Source: a virus. Taken from it: a stretch of 15,173 bases of DNA. Each line of letters opens with the position of its first letter. The stretch's first letter is position 1. The stretch lies in the UHGV virus genome UHGV-0105671. One strand, given 5' to 3'. The position numbers and the translations under genes were made by a program. Below the pieces are notes generated by a model that was given only the letters and a program-made list of their open reading frames with translations, did not search any database and had not been told where the DNA came from. Below, piece by piece: positions 456-7,424 of the stretch.

Positions 456-871
456 AAGCTGTGTGACGAAGTGACCACTCTTAATAGCATAACCAATTTT
501 TTACGTACGTAAACCACTAAATGATATTTGCGAGAATGCTACCGAGTATTGAAAACACCACTACAAATACATAAGCAAATCTCAACAAATAACCAACAGT
601 GTTATTTTTAGCCGGTTTAAATTGAACCTTCAAATTATAGAGCACTTATAAATAACAGACATTAATATAAATTGGCTAATAGATTTATTTTTATTCAGCC
701 AAGAGCCATGAATAGGATTCGATAGAAAAAAGTTCAGATAAAAATAGAGATCTACTTCACAAATCAAACGAGAAACCAAAACTTACATCTTGAAATAATC
801 ACATTGATTAGATGAATATTTATCGCGCAGTGACATCATTTTTTAATAATAGTTCAAAAAAAGGGCTCACG

Positions 872-1954
872 ATGAAAAAATTAACAGTGGCAATTTCTGC
901 TGTAGCTGCATCAGTACTGATGGCGATGTCTGCTCAGGCAGCTGAAATTTATAATAAAGACAGTAACAAGCTGGATCTGTACGGGAAAGTTAATGCTAAG
1001 CACTACTTCTCCTCTAATGATGCAGATGATGGTGATACTACTTATGCCCGTCTTGGCTTCAAAGGTGAAACCCAAATCAACGATCAACTGACTGGTTTCG
1101 GTCAGTGGGAATATGAATTCAAAGGCAACCGCGCTGAATCTCAAGGTTCCTCCAAAGATAAAACCCGTCTTGCCTTCGCTGGCCTGAAATTCGGTGACTA
1201 CGGCTCCATCGATTACGGCCGTAACTACGGTGTAGCATACGACATCGGTGCGTGGACTGACGTCCTGCCAGAATTCGGTGGTGACACTTGGACTCAAACC
1301 GACGTGTTCATGACTCAACGTGCAACTGGTGTTGCAACTTATCGTAACAACGACTTCTTTGGTCTGGTCGATGGCCTGAACTTTGCTGCTCAGTATCAGG
1401 GTAAAAATGACCGCACTGACGTAACTGAAGCCAATGGTGATGGTTTCGGTTTCTCCACTACTTATGAGTATGAAGGATTCGGCGTGGGTGCAACCTATGC
1501 TAAATCAGATCGCACTGACGGTCAGGTCGCCTATGGTAAGAGCAAATTCAATGCCTCCGGCAAAAATGCGGAAGTATGGGCTGCAGGCCTGAAATATGAT
1601 GCGAACAATATCTATCTGGCTACCACATATTCTGAAACTCAGAATATGACCGTTTTTGGTAATAACCATATTGCAAACAAAGCACAAAACTTTGAAGCAG
1701 TAGCACAATATCAGTTTGACTTCGGTCTGCGCCCATCTGTTGCTTACCTTCAGTCAAAAGGTAAAGACCTTGGTGTTCATGGTGACCGAGACTTAGTCAA
1801 GTATGTCGATGTCGGTGCTACTTACTACTTTAATAAAAACATGTCCACTTTTGTTGATTACAAAATCAACTTAATTGACGATAGTAAGTTTACCAAAACA
1901 GCTGGTATTGATACCGACGACATCGCCGCTGTAGGTCTGGTTTATCAGTTCTAA
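872..1954 (+). CDS. nmpC: General bacterial porin (OmpC/NmpC/OmpD family), prophage-borne moron
   Basis: 361-aa product starting [23 protein letters not shown] (signal peptide ending AQA-AE), with porin motifs and the C-terminal ...VGLVYQF beta-barrel signature. AAGGG Shine-Dalgarno before ATG 872; the ORF-track start at 812 is an unsupported upstream extension. Lies between Q and the lysis genes on the opposite strand, as recalled for DLP12 nmpC. Symbol assigned by family and position, not by alignment. Confidence 0.9.
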
Positions 1955-2543: not shown

Positions 2544-3539
2544 TCAGGACAGCACACCAATCGCCAGCGCGCGATCGATAAAACGAAATATCAGCTCCAG
2601 TTGGGAACCATACTTCTCTTCAAATGCCACGGTATCCGCATGCAGTTCGTCATGGTGTTTTCTGCACAAAGGCAACACAAAAAGGTCATGCGCTTTTGTA
2701 CCCATTCCACCCTGACCATGACCAATCAGGTGGTGGGCATCATCAGCAGGCTTTCCGCAACATGCGCACGGCTGCGTCTTAACCCAGCGCGTGTACTTTT
2801 CATTAACCCAGCGGCGACGTTTTGGGCGTAACATAAAAGACTCCGGCGACTCCGGATCCACTTTCAGCGCCAGCACCTTTTTCGCTTTATCCTGGATGAT
2901 GCTGGTGGCAGGAACCGAAGGCACAAGATCACTTTCCCGGGTGACAGACGGCACAACAGGCTTCGGTAATCTCAGTGCCTTACGGGCTGCACTTTCCGGT
3001 AAGGCATCCGCCAGATCATTACGAATCAGCCACCAGCACAGTTCAGGCATTGTCACAACGTGACTGTCATCAAAACCGAGATCCCGACGCACAACAGACA
3101 ACACCCAGCGGGCACAGTTATCCGTTGCCATTGATTCCAGCCGTTCCGTGAACTGATCGCGCAACTGGTTATCGCAGTGCCAGCACAGACGGATTGCGCC
3201 CGGCGCGTGTCGCATTGTTGTCATGTTCTCGCTGTGCCAGCCGGAATGAGGCCACTGACAGCCCTTTTCACGAAGTAACCAGCTTTCAAGACATTCCACA
3301 CCACCAGCACGACGGATCACTGCCTCATTGCGGAACACGGCCCGAACGGCAGGATCATCCGCCAGCGGTTGTGATGCCGCCGGAACGGCACCACTGGCGA
3401 AAGATGAATAACGCTCCGGCTCAGGCTCCAGCAGGACACGCCCCTGCATAAACAGGGGCATCAGCTCTGAACCGGGTCTGAACAATACGATCCCCATACG
3501 CGGGGCAATTTCAGGGGTCAGTAGTGCTCTCACGGTCAC
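2544..3539 (-). CDS. DUF968-family prophage protein with C-terminal Cys/His HNH-like motif
   Basis: 331-aa ORF; C-terminal [18 protein letters not shown]...[10 protein letters not shown] resembles a zinc-binding HNH-like core. A DUF968 gene next to Q is recalled from the Qin prophage (YdfU). GTG start at 3539 sits directly after the upstream TGA with no clear Shine-Dalgarno, so the start is uncertain (alternative ATG at Met15). Confidence 0.6.
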
Positions 3540-3540
3540 C

Positions 3541-4338
3541 TCAATGAACGGTATCGAGCAGCTTTAACAGCTCAGGGAATCGGGATTCGAAGAAGTGTGG
3601 CTGCGTCTCGCGCGGATTTGCGGGACTGGTGATGTTCTTGCCGAACATGCAGCCTTTCGCTGTCAGCGACCAGAATTTTTTGATGTTGTTAATCGCGGTA
3701 CGGCTGTATCGTTCGCGTTGTTCAACGATCCCCAGCTTCACCATCTGGTGATATGCCTGATTAGCCGTCAGGCGGATACCATACTGTTTCAACAGTGCAC
3801 TCAGTGACAGTGTCGGGCGACTTGAGCCATCGTGTGCATCAGCAGGAGCATCAATGGCATAGCGCGGTGCCAGATTCGGTAAGCCAACAGCCTCCTGAAG
3901 CTTCTGACAGGCTCCAAGCACTGATGAGTTAGACAGATTTAATTCCCGGCGCATAAAGTCCAGCAGGATCACGCCAGCCTGCATCTTGTCAGCAGCCTGT
4001 CCGGATAATTTTTCCGGTGCGCTGGTTACCATGTCGAAAGTACGGATCACCTTCAGATGGAATGACGGGCTGATCCACATTGCATAGGCATACACCAGTT
4101 CTTTGCAGACATACGTCCCCTGGTTATTTCCGCCACGAATAACGTTAACTGGCTCTATATTGACCGAGTTGCAAATCTGCAACTCGCTTATTAAACGCTC
4201 AGTTTGCTCATTGCGGAGCCAGAATGCAGGCTTATGCTTATCCAGAGAACCAGCAGCCCTATGCAGATCGTTCAGGCTGTAACGCCCATAAGCATCACGA
4301 CGAACTTCAATACCATCAATGACCATCAGATTATTCAT
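3541..4338 (-). CDS. KilA-N domain protein (antirepressor-like or BstA-like architecture)
   Basis: N-terminal MNNLMVIDGIEVRRDAYGRYSLNDLHRAAG...KPAFWLRNEQTERLISEL matches the KilA-N fold pattern. GAGGAG Shine-Dalgarno precedes ATG 4338 (the track start at 4371 would overlap rusA). The C-terminal ~150 aa are unassigned. Confidence 0.7.
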   Translation of the reverse strand: MNNLMVIDGIEVRRDAYGRYSLNDLHRAAGSLDKHKPAFWLRNEQTERLISELQICNSVNIEPVNVIRGGNNQGTYVCKELVYAYAMWISPSFHLKVIRTFDMVTSAPEKLSGQAADKMQAGVILLDFMRRELNLSNSSVLGACQKLQEAVGLPNLAPRYAIDAPADAHDGSSRPTLSLSALLKQYGIRLTANQAYHQMVKLGIVEQRERYSRTAINNIKKFWSLTAKGCMFGKNITSPANPRETQPHFFESRFPELLKLLDTVH

Positions 4339-4357
4339 ACTTCGTTTCTCCTCTTGA

Positions 4358-4747
4358 TCAGGCGGCTGCACCCGCCGTTTTCTCGTACTTACTGATAGTG
4401 ATCTCGACCTTCCCTTCCGGGATAACCGGTCCCCACTCCACCAGCATTCTTTTCACCTGGCTGTCGTCTTCCCACACACCCGCGTGGGTCAGGGCGTCAA
4501 ACAGCGCCTTGTTATAGTTGTCCAGATCGCGGATCCGGTTATCCGGAGGAAACAACACGATCTCCACTGAAGCAGGTGCCGACGTTGGTTTTGGCAGACG
4601 ACGTAACTGCTCAACTATTGCTGCACACGCCGCGCTCTGGAATTTTCGCCCCGCCGCGCTTATCAGGCTCTTACCTGCAAACGCCCCTTTGTTGGGGTGT
4701 CGCCAGTACGTGTTCACGCTGGGCGGAAAAGGCAGAATCAGCTTCAT
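4358..4747 (-). CDS. rusA: RusA-family Holliday junction resolvase
   Basis: 129-aa product with the conserved core ...DLDNYNKALFDALTHAGVWEDDSQV... matching the RusA catalytic aspartate region as recalled. ATGA overlap with the upstream gene stop. Confidence 0.8.
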   Translation of the reverse strand: MKLILPFPPSVNTYWRHPNKGAFAGKSLISAAGRKFQSAACAAIVEQLRRLPKPTSAPASVEIVLFPPDNRIRDLDNYNKALFDALTHAGVWEDDSQVKRMLVEWGPVIPEGKVEITISKYEKTAGAAA

Positions 4748-5070
4748 ACTTTCAGGCCTCTCTCATGTAACCAGTGAGCTGCACGCAGCCTGGCGTTCAC
4801 CTCACCGGCAAGCAGTGCGCGGATAATCCCGACCGCCTCGCTGTCGTCGTCCTTCACCGCGGTATGAAGCGTGATCCCCCGGGCCACGCCACGCTTTATC
4901 GTGATGACGCCTTTTTTCTCCAGTGCGCGAAGATGCTCCACCGCTGTATTCACTGAACGGTATCCCAGCATGGTTGCCACCTCCTGATTGGTTGGCGGGA
5001 AGCCACGTTCTTTCTGATAAGAAATCAGCATATCCAGCACCTGCTGCTGGCATTGAGTTAACGTCGTCAT
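4744..5070 (-). CDS. LexA N-terminal DNA-binding-domain-like winged-helix protein lacking the S24 peptidase domain
   Basis: 108 aa; MTTLTQCQQQVLDMLISYQKERGFPPTNQEVATMLGYRSVNTAVEHLRALEKKGVITIKRGVARGI parallels the LexA N-terminal domain (recalled as [58 protein letters not shown]). No Ser/Lys autoprotease region. ATGA coupling at both ends. Confidence 0.6.
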   Translation of the reverse strand: MTTLTQCQQQVLDMLISYQKERGFPPTNQEVATMLGYRSVNTAVEHLRALEKKGVITIKRGVARGITLHTAVKDDDSEAVGIIRALLAGEVNARLRAAHWLHERGLKV

Positions 5071-5720
5071 GCCGCCATCTCCCTGACCAGTTTTTCCGCC
5101 TGCTGGCGAACCTGCGCCAGAAACGCCTCACCACATGCCTCAAGTTCATCGCGCCCGATGTAGCTGATTGCCGGTCCCTTCCAGGTCTTGTCAAAAACAG
5201 CAATAGCACCAGCGAAAAAAGCTCCTGTCGGTACCTGCTTCTCGTCTTTCGGGATAAACCAGACAGGCAGTTCAAAACCAATACGCCCACGAATAAAAGC
5301 AATATGATCTGCATATTCCGGCCACCACACTTCGCTGGTGGCAGCTTTGATCAGGAAAACATAGCGCCCGCCCTTATCACGCATGGCACTGGCATGTTTC
5401 ATGATGTAACGCATGCCGGTGATGTATTGCCCATCATGTTGACTGGCGCGGCTGTATGGAGGATTACCAAAGGCAGCACCTTTAAGCCCCGCAAGGCGTT
5501 CTGACCAGTCATGCGCCAGCGCGTTGTCTTCCGCCGTGTAATACGCGGCACATTTGGCGTTATCACCGTCAGTGAACAGATCCAGAACAAACGGGCCAAA
5601 CAGGGTGTTAATTCCCCAGAAAATGTTGTCCGGCGTGCACCACTGATCACCCACTTCCTTCAGTTCATGGGCTGGTTTGTTCCGCAGTTCCACCAGCTCC
5701 TGGCAATATTTATTACTCAT
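5067..5720 (-). CDS. Phage-type DNA N6-adenine methyltransferase (Dam family), orphan
   Basis: Contains the FGNPPYS (NPPY) catalytic motif; 217 aa from ATG 5720, whose TAATG overlaps the upstream gene stop and is preceded by GGGGG. No adjacent restriction endonuclease gene. Confidence 0.8.
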   Translation of the reverse strand: MSNKYCQELVELRNKPAHELKEVGDQWCTPDNIFWGINTLFGPFVLDLFTDGDNAKCAAYYTAEDNALAHDWSERLAGLKGAAFGNPPYSRASQHDGQYITGMRYIMKHASAMRDKGGRYVFLIKAATSEVWWPEYADHIAFIRGRIGFELPVWFIPKDEKQVPTGAFFAGAIAVFDKTWKGPAISYIGRDELEACGEAFLAQVRQQAEKLVREMAA

Positions 5721-6208
5721 TAAGCCCCCACGTAATTCCCTGACAGATACCACTCATCACCCGATACAGCTCGCTTGCTGCTTTTCCGTAAGCACCGCTC
5801 ACGACGCGCCAGAAAATTGTTTCGTTCTGGCTGGGAGTGGCTTTCACGGAATGCCGCCATCCACACGGTTGCAGCACGACGGTATAAGCCCCTTGACTCC
5901 AGTTCTTCAGCCTGGCGGGTCAGGCACAAAATCACCCGGGGATCGTTAGTGCCGACATAGAAATTGCGCACAGGTCTGGTTTCACGAACTGGTTGTGGTT
6001 CCGGCTCCTGCGCTCTCTCAGTCAGGCGTGGGAAATGTCTGCGTGTATCTCCTTCACAACGGTGAGCCACACGCCCACTCTGACGTAACTTGCTTGCTGA
6101 CTGCAGAACGCGCTGCCGTGAGTAACCTGCAAAAGCATCCGCAACGTCTCCGGAAGTACACCCCGGATGGGCTTCAATGAATTTCTGAACTTCATTCAAA
6201 AGACTCAT
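5720..6208 (-). CDS. yfdN: YfdN-like prophage protein; C-terminal region resembles PerC-family regulators (tentative)
   Basis: 162 aa from ATG 6208 (AGGGGGTG Shine-Dalgarno, 5-nt spacer); the track GTG at 6214 gives 164 aa, the size recalled for K-12 CPS-53 YfdN. C-terminal GLYRRAATVWMAAF...ERNNFLARRERC is reminiscent of PerC-like proteins. Symbol rests on recalled size and gene order, not alignment. Confidence 0.45.
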   Translation of the reverse strand: MSLLNEVQKFIEAHPGCTSGDVADAFAGYSRQRVLQSASKLRQSGRVAHRCEGDTRRHFPRLTERAQEPEPQPVRETRPVRNFYVGTNDPRVILCLTRQAEELESRGLYRRAATVWMAAFRESHSQPERNNFLARRERCLRKSSKRAVSGDEWYLSGNYVGA

Positions 6209-6210
6209 GA

Positions 6211-7203
6211 TCACCCCCTGAATCCTACCGGGATCTGGCTGTAGTCCACGTTGTCGTAACTGGCTTTGAAGTACGGGTCTTCACGTTTTTCTGTGTGCGT
6301 GCTGACGGACGGCGATAAGCGCAGGGAAAGCTCATCCCATTTTTCCCGCAACTTCGACGGGCTGAGCACGTTACGGCACCAGAACGGATCACGGCTGACG
6401 CGGCTGTACATCTCGCAGATTTGTTTGTGAGTACGACCATCCTGCACACACATCAGGCGAATTTCGTTTGCCCATGCTGTCCAGTTCGGTTCTTTGGGAC
6501 GAACCACCTCGCCGTCACATTCGGCGGCCTGCTCGTACAGGGCGATGATTTTTTTCCAGAGCCACTGTGCGCAGGTCAAATCATCCTGCGTTCCCCACTG
6601 GCGCTTTTTAGGGCTGAATACAACCGCATCAGGATGGCGAGTTAAAAACTCCTGTTCAGCCGTTTGCGTGTCCGGTTGCGAAGCGTCCGGACGAGAAGAG
6701 GTTTTATTCTCTGTAGTAATCTCTGTTGTATTCTCTGTAAGATCATTGGGCCATTTTGACCCGATGACAGCGTGTCGTTTTGAACCAATGGATCGTGTCA
6801 TTTTGCGCCCATCCATCAGGTCACTTTGACCCGATGGAGAAGTGCATTTTGACCTGATGGATTCGTTCACTTTGACCTCTTCTAAAAGCTCACTTTCATA
6901 GTTGATCGTGTAGAAGTTGGTCATGTCACGCTTCGATTTATTGAGTTGCTCGCGACGCAAAACCCCAAGTGATTTCAGGCTTGCAAATGTGCGTTTCAGA
7001 GTGGACTCTGACCAGAACGGAAACTGCTCCAGCCACTGTTCTGTCGTGTTATAAACCCAGCGAATTCCGCCATGCTCAGTGCCTGAATTCGTTTCATTCA
7101 GCCAGTAATGAAGCTGCTGCAACACAATTGCCTCATTCAGACCAATACGGCATGCAAGATCACGATTTATCACAATGGGCTGGGATGTCATTAACAGGCT
7201 CAT
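6211..7203 (-). CDS. Replication initiator (functional analogue of lambda O) with internal iteron origin
   Basis: 330-aa ORF with GGAGG Shine-Dalgarno; located after the immunity region as for lambda O. It contains an array of about six ~23-bp-spaced direct repeats followed by an AT-rich tract (see repeat feature), mirroring lambda ori-inside-O. The repeats encode a reiterated peptide (…RSIGSK…VIGSK…). Confidence 0.6.
   Translation of the reverse strand: MSLLMTSQPIVINRDLACRIGLNEAIVLQQLHYWLNETNSGTEHGGIRWVYNTTEQWLEQFPFWSESTLKRTFASLKSLGVLRREQLNKSKRDMTNFYTINYESELLEEVKVNESIRSKCTSPSGQSDLMDGRKMTRSIGSKRHAVIGSKWPNDLTENTTEITTENKTSSRPDASQPDTQTAEQEFLTRHPDAVVFSPKKRQWGTQDDLTCAQWLWKKIIALYEQAAECDGEVVRPKEPNWTAWANEIRLMCVQDGRTHKQICEMYSRVSRDPFWCRNVLSPSKLREKWDELSLRLSPSVSTHTEKREDPYFKASYDNVDYSQIPVGFRG
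6701..6879. repeat. Candidate phage origin of replication: iteron array plus AT-rich repeat region
   Basis: Plus-strand direct repeats with core CAYTTTGACCYGATGG beginning near 6752, 6776, 6798, 6822, 6845 and 6868 (spacing 22 to 24 bp). Adjacent AT-rich segment 6701..6745 carries three TCTCTGT repeats at 12-bp spacing. Confidence 0.6.
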
Positions 7204-7424
7204 GCCGCACCTCCGAGATGCTTCATGTTTTTTCCGGAGCGAAAGGCTATAAGCGGCATACTGACGCGGTAATTACGGCCCAGCGGTTCACAAACCACCT
7301 TCTGACATTCACGGTCAACCAGGCTAACACGTAGAACATGCCCTGCAGGCGTGGTGTACCACTGACCCGGACGAGGACAACGGAAAGTCTGATTGGTAAA
7401 ACGTTTGAAAATATTCCGGATCAT
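7200..7424 (-). CDS. Hypothetical small protein (74 aa)
   Basis: ATGA overlaps with both flanking genes and an AGGTAAGGGGG Shine-Dalgarno upstream. No recognisable motif. Confidence 0.4.
   Translation of the reverse strand: MIRNIFKRFTNQTFRCPRPGQWYTTPAGHVLRVSLVDRECQKVVCEPLGRNYRVSMPLIAFRSGKNMKHLGGAA

Follow-up and report, generated by a model that had tools for sequence, protein, structure and literature searches.

Organization of the yfdN-dam locus

The window, that is, the whole stretch of 15,173 nucleotides analyzed here (UHGV virus genome UHGV-0105671), contains a phage adenine methyltransferase gene (dam) directly behind a yfdN-like gene. This module is a stretch of an SfV-like lambdoid Escherichia coli prophage of a very common type that has already been annotated. 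On the minus strand, the early-right operon reads cro-like gene, ymfL, Rha, a small ORF, an O-like replication gene and yfdN, and continues with dam, a LexA-N-domain gene, rusA, a kilA-N gene, a DUF968/HNH gene and Q. A cI-like repressor gene and the cro-like gene are located upstream of yfdN and dam. The features of the module and its immediate neighbours are the following:

4744..5070, minus strand: downstream neighbour of dam, 108 aa, LexA DNA-binding domain only, no peptidase domain (PF01726, 68.5 bits)
5067..5070, minus strand: ATGA overlap of the dam stop and the start of the next gene (dam-plus window compared with the dam-less phage 2H10)
5067..5720, minus strand: dam, orphan phage N6-adenine DNA methyltransferase of 217 aa, ATG at 5720 and stop at 5067 (profile matches)
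5454..5465, minus strand: catalytic motif IV, N-P-P-Y, residues 86-89 (AAT CCT CCA TAC), invariant in both family alignments
5718..5722, minus strand: TAATG junction, yfdN stop TAA (5722-5720) and dam ATG (5720-5718) with 1 nt in common (same shared base in RefSeq)
5720..6214, minus strand: yfdN-like gene, 164 aa from GTG 6214 (RefSeq) or 162 aa from ATG 6208 (PF06069, phrog_1324)
5725..5729, minus strand: G5 run four bases upstream of the dam ATG, site of a +1 G slip
5762..5941, minus strand: predicted C-terminal three-helix PerC/ANR-like module of YfdN, residues ~92-151 (PF06069; AF2)
5942..6022, minus strand: predicted variable Pro/Glu-rich linker of YfdN, low model confidence, residues ~65-91 (pLDDT <50 at residues 65-86)
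6023..6214, minus strand: predicted N-terminal winged-helix domain of YfdN, residues ~1-64 (AF2 order helix-helix-helix-strand-strand, pLDDT 84-89)
6211..7203, minus strand: upstream neighbour of yfdN, O-like/DnaD-like replication initiator of 330 aa (phrog_391, 339.7 bits, full length)

Six consecutive gene junctions of the operon overlap by 1 to 4 nt each. Neither a sigma-70-like promoter, in a consensus scan, nor a minus-strand terminator was found between positions 4300 and 7500. The stop codon of the replication initiator gene (TGA, 6213-6211) abuts the yfdN start, and a replication gene precedes yfdN in every examined locus whose upstream flank is visible. In the 108-aa LexA-N protein, the match to TIGR00498 extends over positions 1-90 of 203 only. 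Further downstream, a nuclease domain of the HNH type is recognized (PF16784, 29.5 bits) in the DUF968/HNH protein encoded at 2544-3539, and rusA codes for a resolvase of Holliday junctions (PF05866).

The pair is already known from the RefSeq annotation, from phage SfV, from the CPS-53 remnant of E. coli K-12 and from the literature on yfdN. Both genes are named in RefSeq, with identical gene names in a 99.7%-identical chromosome. In several RefSeq phage records the dam gene is mislabelled as "phosphoadenosine phosphosulfate reductase".

The methyltransferase and its probable specificity

A preliminary description of this DNA, made from the letters alone, had recognized a Dam-type adenine methyltransferase by its NPPY motif, and the profile searches bear this out. 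The protein matches PF05869 with 151.6 bits (cut-off 28.1) and the equivalog-level model TIGR01712 with 250.1 bits (cut-off 97.05), which places it in both families, and the PADLOC model MTase_II (PDLC03263) aligns over the full length with 507.7 bits. All 22 family-invariant residues are intact in an alignment reaching down to 31% identity, and the retained residues include W27, T29, P30, D47, N54, K56, C57, G145 and R146. Members of the Dam family have no separate target-recognition domain. The AF2 model of Dam, built on a shallow alignment of 15 sequences that are all at least 75% identical, has a mean pLDDT of only 37.3, and no solved structure related by sequence was found for either Dam or YfdN.

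Compared with the Dam of phage SfV, the window enzyme shows few substitutions, namely R28C, E78G and D136Y. R28C and E78G affect otherwise conserved positions and both also occur in the phage record PhiR47_1, while 13 of 14 aligned close homologues have D at position 136. A possible inactivation of the window copy by these changes was considered; none of them falls on a family-invariant residue, and two recur in PhiR47_1.

The target of the enzyme is most likely GATC, the site of the host's own Dam, judging from the 97.2%-identical SfV homologue, which the SfV record (NC_003444) names "dam". SfV orf41 is reportedly a GATC Dam methylase that is active alone, a result said to go back to Allison and co-workers (J Bacteriol, 2002); full-text searches of other articles found no statement on the SfV Dam experiment. 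The window contains 57 GATC sites, with an observed/expected ratio of 0.85, that is, no avoidance worth noting.

The view that the methyltransferase has no partner endonuclease likewise stood up. No restriction-endonuclease-like gene is present among the neighbours (replication gene, yfdN, LexA-N, RusA, KilA-N, DUF968/HNH and Q), and the downstream neighbours persist in loci that have no dam. A PADLOC scan of the two flanking proteins gave only a faint match of the LexA-N protein to a CARF model (19.9 bits). The dam gene is thus an orphan without a cognate nuclease. The locus also does not have the makeup of a controller (C-protein) restriction-modification unit: an endonuclease partner was not found, and regulator and methyltransferase occur independently of each other.

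[quoted passage not shown] The depositors of the SfV record annotated a putative -35/-10 promoter for dam inside orf40, which suggests that there may be some expression in lysogens; its hexamers (TTGCGC, TTACGG) are poor, and this promoter was not recovered here by the consensus scan. With a likely GATC target and no promoter-like site found within the operon, the methylome of a lysogen would probably contain no new motif. The comparison of lysogen and cured strain that had been suggested is therefore probably uninformative, and its proposed refuting outcome, no new motif in lysogens, makes a weak test since it would be expected even with a fully active enzyme.

Predicted two-domain architecture of YfdN

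The yfdN start is probably ATG 6208 rather than the GTG 6214 used by RefSeq, because the M-S-L that follows from it is invariant and most homologues, even distant relatives, begin with it. A GGGGG run is located 5 nt upstream of this ATG.

The resemblance of the YfdN C-terminus to PerC-type regulators had been proposed tentatively, and the profile search substantiated it: residues 98-151 match positions 5-58 of the 90 in the PerC profile PF06069 with 38.1 bits (gathering score 22.6), and the homologue of phage ST64B reaches 32.2 bits. YfdN also matches phrog_1324 with 262.5 bits. The matches that identify dam and yfdN are strong homologies rather than chance resemblances. The ANR model NF033650 scores 23.5 bits over residues 98-144 (E 3.7e-5), which is below its cut-off of 32, so that YfdN is not counted as an ANR protein. 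Nor is it a small single-domain protein of ~100 aa such as PerC and the group 1 Pch proteins.

Rather, the AF2 model describes YfdN as a two-domain protein consisting of a winged helix, a disordered linker and a PerC/ANR-like three-helix module. In Foldseek searches the N-terminal part resembled the winged helices of ArsR, SmtB, BlaI, MarR and MepR (1.8-3 Å over 57-66 residues) with probabilities of ~1.0, yet weak E-values of 0.01-0.2; profile matches of residues 8-70 were likewise weak (phrog_1687 MarR, E 2.5e-4; BilQ, 17.3 bits, cut-off 125). The linker differs in both length and sequence among homologues. The three C-terminal helices are predicted at residues 92-107, 111-124 and 128-151, with a pLDDT of ~89-94 through residue 140 and lower values beyond, and the best-conserved block of the protein is GLYxRAATVW. 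Both domains are kept in 20 further full-length homologues with 24-70% identity. The label "PerC family" accordingly applies to the C-terminal third of YfdN only, and does not predict LEE activation.

Junctions, distribution and the database fusions

As originally described, the dam start overlaps the stop of the yfdN-like gene, by the 1 nt of TAATG, and the G5 run in front of it is probably the Shine-Dalgarno sequence of dam. The two genes had, however, been presented as a coupled pair, and here only the adjacency and the overlap hold. A special pairing is not supported, given that six consecutive operon junctions overlap by 1-4 nt, which makes any coupling generic, and that each gene also occurs alone. 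The stop/start overlap should therefore not be taken as a sign of a dedicated regulator-methylase system.

The dam start is formed by the same ATGA that joins dam to the next gene. With ATGA at both of its ends, dam can be inserted or deleted as an exact cassette. Both states are found among complete E. coli genomes: the exact 32-nt yfdN-dam junction is present at 2,274 places in 1,964 of the 5,426 genomes, the junction of yfdN with the LexA-N gene, without dam, at 538 places in 508 genomes, and yfdN-like sequence as such at 3,360 places in 2,668 genomes. About one third of the complete E. coli genomes carry the pair, which is of little importance as a discovery; the present analysis makes modest additions, namely the predicted two-domain architecture of YfdN and the origin of the apparent YfdN::Dam fusions.

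The dam-less yfdN loci are L007, L011, L012, L014 and L015; this arrangement is found in phage 2H10 (L007), S. flexneri, Citrobacter and other genomes, and SfIV has been described as lacking the methylase that SfII and SfV possess (PMC3851460). The dam-less loci L007 and L011 retain the DUF968/HNH, RusA and KilA-N neighbours with 96-99% identity, and L014 retains the downstream neighbours with 68-91%. Conversely, the phages cdtI and YeP2 (loci L005 and L006) have a dam gene but no yfdN. The ORF upstream of dam in the Yersinia phage YeP2 was considered as a diverged YfdN and rejected, with no BLASTP alignment and no Pfam match. In the Leclercia locus L016, YfdN is 27% and Dam 75% identical to the window proteins, a discordance which points to independent recombination of the two genes. 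A search for loci in species representatives returned seven, among which both dam-plus and dam-less loci were seen, a number that does not allow statistics beyond E. coli. Taken together, dam is an optional plug-in cassette and not a dedicated partner of yfdN.

Sequence databases contain YfdN::Dam "fusion proteins" of 380 aa, which were examined as Rosetta-stone evidence and discarded. Their junction results from a +1 G in the G5 homopolymer, and the resulting G6 junction is found in none of the 5,426 complete E. coli genomes, compared with 1,964 for the G5 junction. A second fusion arises from a different indel, and most fusion clusters are singletons. These entries are homopolymer frameshifts, of the kind that sequencing errors or sporadic mutations would produce.

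Proposed role of the module and alternatives

We consider it likely that the module comprises an SfV-like early-operon Dam, probably specific for GATC and made upon induction, a two-domain YfdN that probably modulates transcription, and an optional dam cassette. Dam would be made only post-induction, from the polycistronic early transcript, and would maintain full Dam methylation of the rapidly replicating phage DNA. Full methylation could protect this DNA from nucleases that cut unmethylated GATC, and a phage-encoded Dam would make the phage independent of the host's Dam capacity. By analogy with Pch/PerC and ANR, YfdN would most likely act on transcription through complexes of nucleoid proteins (H-NS), with the modelled winged helix supplying the DNA contact. 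The 1-nt stop/start overlap would provide ordinary translational coupling, as at five neighbouring junctions, and the ATGA that links yfdN with the LexA-N gene would be the precise insertion point of dam, so that YfdN and Dam are neighbours rather than obligate partners.

A related reading, which we regard as possible but doubtful, is that YfdN-type proteins form a distinct, undescribed two-domain class of DNA-targeted modulators of H-NS-type complexes or of replication-coupled transcription, that they are not LEE activators, and that the dam cassette simply uses the yfdN stop codon and G5 site. A more remote version has YfdN also steering or timing the recognition-domain-less Dam when both are present. 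That the two are a true functional pair, with YfdN targeting Dam to DNA or timing its expression like a C protein, is very unlikely. The adjacency with 1-nt overlap at the 2,274 E. coli places, its recurrence in Salmonella phage ST64B, with 67-69% identity, and in a Leclercia locus, the 380-aa database fusions and the DNA-binding-type fold predicted for YfdN would fit such a pairing. Yet phage records and hundreds of genomes show each gene without the other, dam comes and goes as a precise cassette, the two proteins have diverged discordantly in L016, and the fusions trace back to the extra G or another indel. Moreover, Staphylococcus and Lactococcus phages encode family members of 140 aa that stand alone, and SfV orf41 by itself was reportedly active. 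Hardly conceivable is a cryptic restriction or toxin system in which dam is the modification half and the DUF968/HNH protein or RusA the nuclease. An HNH-type domain and RusA are indeed encoded two to four genes downstream in the same operon, but the dam-less loci L007, L011 and L014 keep DUF968/HNH at 87-99% and RusA at 91-99% identity, so neither protein needs Dam to be tolerated; RusA is a junction resolvase, and the flanking proteins matched no PADLOC family beyond the faint CARF hit.

Returning to Dam as an induction-made GATC enzyme, two alternatives concern its specificity and timing. A relaxed or non-GATC specificity like that of Hia5, Hin1523 and M.EcoGII, giving broad anti-restriction protection, appears improbable. 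Non-specific prophage adenine methyltransferases do exist (PMC3299994, PMC5778455), and the lack of a separate recognition domain in the Dam family would be compatible with one; M.EcoGII, however, is a 349-aa beta-class enzyme of another family, TIGR01712 is an equivalog-level model, and the 97%-identical SfV gene, named dam, is reported to encode a Dam methylase. The other alternative, suggested in the preliminary description, is that the enzyme is expressed in the lysogen and acts epigenetically, or adds a new motif to the host. Regulatory orphan methyltransferases are well known, and the SfV record places a putative dam promoter inside the upstream gene. Against this, the annotated hexamers are weak, the interval 4300-7500 holds no sigma-70-like site, dam lies in mid-operon downstream of the cI/cro switch, the K-12 copy is truncated to residues 1-89, and other E. 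coli prophage methyltransferases (M.EcoGII) are silent in lysogens (PMC5778455). Given further that the nearest characterized homologue, 97.2% identical, is named as a Dam and is said to share the host's GATC specificity, the new-motif or epigenetic idea is weak, and we hold lysogen expression of this kind to be quite improbable.

Relation to known systems

M.EcoGII and Hia5 are, like the window Dam, prophage-borne orphan m6A methyltransferases; they are silent in lysogens and thought to be active on induction (PMC5778455). M.EcoGII differs in being a beta-class protein of 349 aa from a different family, with a DPPY motif placed first and its own recognition domain (PMC5778455), and no sequence relation of the window Dam to M.EcoGII or Hia5 was detected. 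Much closer are the small Dam enzymes of phage Chi, Staphylococcus phage 80 ("dam") and the Lactococcus 936 group, which are 31-46% identical and share the WxTP, LD, NAKC, NPPY and GR motifs as well as their order. Two insertions and a C-terminal helix distinguish the window Dam from the 140-aa versions of Gram-positive phages, which lack them. The Dam enzymes of T1, HP1 and VT2-Sakai belong to the same kind of small phage Dam, and all of them are reported to methylate GATC.

With regard to YfdN, the C-terminal module passes the threshold of PF06069, the family of PerC (EPEC) and PchA/B/C (EHEC), which are likewise carried by prophages or mobile elements, and yfdN has been treated as the K-12 PerC homologue (PMC5931665). 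Pch proteins act by relieving H-NS silencing (PMC4764244). Group 1 pch genes have 315 bp and encode ~104 aa (PMC5931665), whereas YfdN, with its 162-164 aa, has the predicted winged helix and linker in addition. Only group 1 Pch proteins activate LEE1, while PchD, PchE and PerC-like proteins of phage-inducible islands have little, no or the opposite effect (PMC5931665, PMC11773190); at LEE1, members of the PerC family can be activators or repressors or have no effect, and the resemblance of the family to ANR is in print (PMC11773190). The similarity of ANR (AraC negative regulator, Aar) to residues 98-144 of YfdN is weak but significant, at a score below the cut-off. ANR proteins, which are small and helical, have H-NS and AraC-type regulators as binding partners; the window contains no gene for an AraC-family partner.

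The closest counterpart is phage SfV (NC_003444), in which orf40, dam (orf41) and orf42 occur in the same order, through rusA, kilA-N and DUF968, with the same TAATG and ATGA overlaps. YfdN is 96.3-97%, Dam 97.2% and the neighbours are 94-99% identical to their SfV counterparts, except that the upstream replication gene is a different allele that is alike in its last 33 residues only. The same module is also found in SfII, mEp460, Stx2a_1447 and Stx2c-converting phages. In CPS-53 (KpLE1) of K-12, the yfdN-yfdM pair has the same junction and a ~96% identical yfdN, but in such K-12-type loci (L010, L013) the methyltransferase match is confined to residues 1-89, the yfdM remnant, whereas the copy in the window is full-length.

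Results

The window is a lambdoid, SfV-like prophage that is 99.7% identical to an E. coli chromosome over 3 kb, in which RefSeq uses the names 'PerC family transcriptional regulator' and 'phage N-6-adenine-methyltransferase'. All relevant genes lie in a long minus-strand operon opposite the cI-like repressor. It begins with a cro-like gene, ymfL, Rha, a 74-aa ORF, an O-like/DnaD-like replication gene and yfdN, followed by dam, the LexA-N gene (encoding a LexA DNA-binding domain only), rusA, a kilA-N gene, a DUF968/HNH gene and Q.

Features of the yfdN/dam region
9453-10079, plus strand: cI-like repressor
6211-7203, minus strand: O-like/DnaD-like replication gene (phrog_391, 339.7 bits)
5720-6214, minus strand: yfdN (PF06069 match)
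5067-5720, minus strand, ATG at 5720: dam, phage N6-adenine DNA methyltransferase, 217 aa (profile matches)
5454-5465, minus strand: NPPY motif of the dam product (residues 86-89)
4744-5070, minus strand: LexA-N gene, 108 aa (PF01726, 68.5 bits; TIGR00498, positions 1-90 of 203)

The preliminary description had proposed an NPPY adenine methyltransferase, and this assignment was confirmed by the scores of the dam product against Pfam PF05869 (151.6 bits, cut-off 28.1), the NCBIfam equivalog TIGR01712 (250.1 bits, cut-off 97) and, over the full length, PADLOC MTase_II PDLC03263 (507.7 bits). In a family alignment reaching down to 31% identity, which took in phage Chi, Vibrio phage H20, Staphylococcus phage 80 and a Lactococcus 936-group phage, all 22 invariant residues are intact in the window Dam, including WxTP, D47, NAKC, NPPY and GR. 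The substitutions R28C and E78G are also present in the phage record PhiR47_1, and D136Y introduces the sole Tyr among the aligned sequences at a site that is variable family-wide. No restriction-nuclease-like gene was found in the neighbourhood of dam, in agreement with the earlier view that the enzyme lacks a partner endonuclease. Since the DUF968/HNH and RusA genes are retained at 87-99% identity in dam-less loci, neither depends on Dam.

In several RefSeq phage records (SfV, SfII, mEp460, cdtI, ST64B) the dam gene carries a PAPS reductase label. This is an annotation-propagation error, probably due to phrog_33262, a two-part profile labelled 'phosphoadenosine phosphosulfate reductase', whose positions 2-279 match the PAPS-reductase-like protein of the window (311.6 bits) and to which Dam aligns at 283-492 (317.4 bits). 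The former protein (13069-13947, plus strand), encoded in the early-left operon and adjoined by a YfdR-type 5'-deoxynucleotidase gene (12515-13078), is weakly similar to the DNA-phosphorothioation/defence proteins SspD (55.7 bits), DndC and BrxP, and a role in DNA modification or nucleotide metabolism is possible.

The last base of the yfdN stop codon TAA (5722-5720) is the first base of the dam ATG, so that the start of dam does overlap the preceding stop, by one shared base. This overlap is not a special link, because it follows the house style of the operon, in which six consecutive junctions from Rha through rusA each overlap by 1-4 nt. Neither a sigma-70-like promoter on either strand nor a minus-strand terminator was found between 4300 and 7500. 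YfdN::Dam proteins of 380 aa and Dam::LexA-N proteins of 292 aa are present in databases. The YfdN::Dam junction YVGG-LMSNKY corresponds to an insertion of one G into the G5 homopolymer (5725-5729, minus strand), a form found in none of 5,426 complete E. coli genomes, and a further fusion carries another indel. We therefore rejected the YfdN::Dam proteins as functional fusions and read them as homopolymer errors or sporadic frameshifts.

The pairing of yfdN with dam is not specific, and dam is a facultative cassette. In the same 5,426 genomes, yfdN-like sequence occurs at 3,360 places (2,668 genomes) and the exact yfdN-TAATG-dam junction at 2,274 (1,964 genomes), while at 538 places (508 genomes) the exact yfdN-TAATG junction leads directly to the LexA-N gene without dam. 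Phage 2H10, genomic loci of S. flexneri and Citrobacter and a short contig bearing the label Fredinandcohnia also have yfdN without dam, and the methylase of SfII and SfV is absent from SfIV according to its authors (PMC3851460). The converse arrangement, dam lacking YfdN, is seen in phage cdtI, which retains only 28 codons of yfdN, and in Yersinia phage YeP2, whose dam is preceded by an unrelated ORF of 156 aa. In a Leclercia locus, identity is 27% for YfdN and 75% for Dam, and these discordant values indicate that the two genes recombine independently. Comparison of the dam-plus sequence (...GGGGCTTAATGAGT...GGCGGCATGACGACG; window 5067-5070 and 5718-5722) with the dam-less sequence of phage 2H10 (...TGGGCTTAATGACGACG; locus L007, 2950-3030) places both cassette boundaries exactly on a shared ATGA, and the next gene thus stays coupled through TAATG in dam-less phages. 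With dam facultative and its overlap one of six, a special coupling to the YfdN-like regulator is not supported.

The LexA-N gene, whose start overlaps the dam stop (ATGA), is found both with and without dam. Its product has no S24 autocleavage domain and could be a non-cleavable LexA mimic produced during induction. Just upstream of the Rha/antirepressor ORF of the same operon, or within its 5' part, Rfam identified a C4 antisense RNA (RF01695; 8021-8108, minus strand; 68.4 bits against 45) and isrK (RF01394; 8133-8209, minus strand; 60 bits against 50), a pair that looks like an RNA-based secondary immunity element of the P1/P7 or Gifsy type. Between Q and the lysis genes, a 380-aa ORF (812-1954, plus strand), whose counterpart in the near-identical chromosome is RefSeq 'porin OmpC', is a porin moron carried by the prophage.

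For yfdN, RefSeq places the start at GTG 6214 and the preliminary description at ATG 6208. The latter appears the better candidate, because most homologues, distant ones included, begin with the invariant M-S-L, and a GGGGG run lies 5 nt upstream. The AF2 model (mean pLDDT 76.5) has three parts: a winged helix (residues 1-62, pLDDT 84-89), a linker rich in Pro and Glu that is disordered and variable (65-86, below 50) and a three-helix module (92-151, ~89-94 through 140, lower beyond). With Foldseek, the N-terminal domain aligns to ArsR/SmtB, BlaI, MarR and MepR winged helices over 57-66 residues at ~2-3 Å with weak E-values (0.01-0.2), in agreement with weak MarR-type HMM matches. The suspected C-terminal resemblance to PerC was upheld by profile search (PF06069, residues 98-151, 38.1 bits, gathering score 22.6); the score of this module against the ANR family was 23.5 bits, below the threshold of 32, and PerC/ANR similarity is already in print (PMC11773190). 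When 1.84 billion cluster representatives were searched exhaustively, only 102 clusters were obtained at E ≤0.001, about 25 of them full-length two-domain homologues (25-47% identity, both domains kept).

Discussion

The most likely target of the window Dam is GATC, since the homologue is named dam in the SfV record and Allison et al. reportedly confirmed by experiment in 2002 that SfV orf-41 encodes a Dam methylase. GATC, also the site of the host's own Dam, is not markedly avoided in the window (57 observed, 67.2 expected, ratio 0.85). In the window, CTAG (2 against an expected 11.6) and GGCC (28 against 57.8) are strongly depleted. Expression of dam would likely be confined to induction, because the gene sits in the middle of the operon, downstream of the cI/cro switch, and no promoter of its own was detected; the same has been argued for other prophage methyltransferases of E. 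coli (PMC5778455). Its probable role would be to maintain full GATC methylation of phage DNA during rapid replication. With a host motif as the likely target and expression probably upon induction only, a methylome comparison of lysogen and cured strain would be expected to be blank even with a fully active enzyme.

In the literature, yfdN is regarded as the K-12 PerC homologue (PMC5931665). Pch proteins displace H-NS (PMC4764244), and PerC-family members act at LEE1 as activator, inert or repressor, so that the family name is no guide to function. YfdN departs from the 'small single-domain' description of PerC/Pch, although it is a PF06069 member by profile score.

The yfdN/dam feature is ordinary, widespread, annotated beforehand and already known. 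The orf40/dam(orf41)/orf42 module of Shigella phage SfV is 96-97% identical to that of the window. SfII, mEp460, Stx2a_1447 and Stx2c-converting phages carry the same module, and Salmonella phage ST64B has it at 67-69% identity. In K-12-type loci of the prophage remnant CPS-53, the same yfdN is followed by an 89-residue methyltransferase remnant, yfdM.
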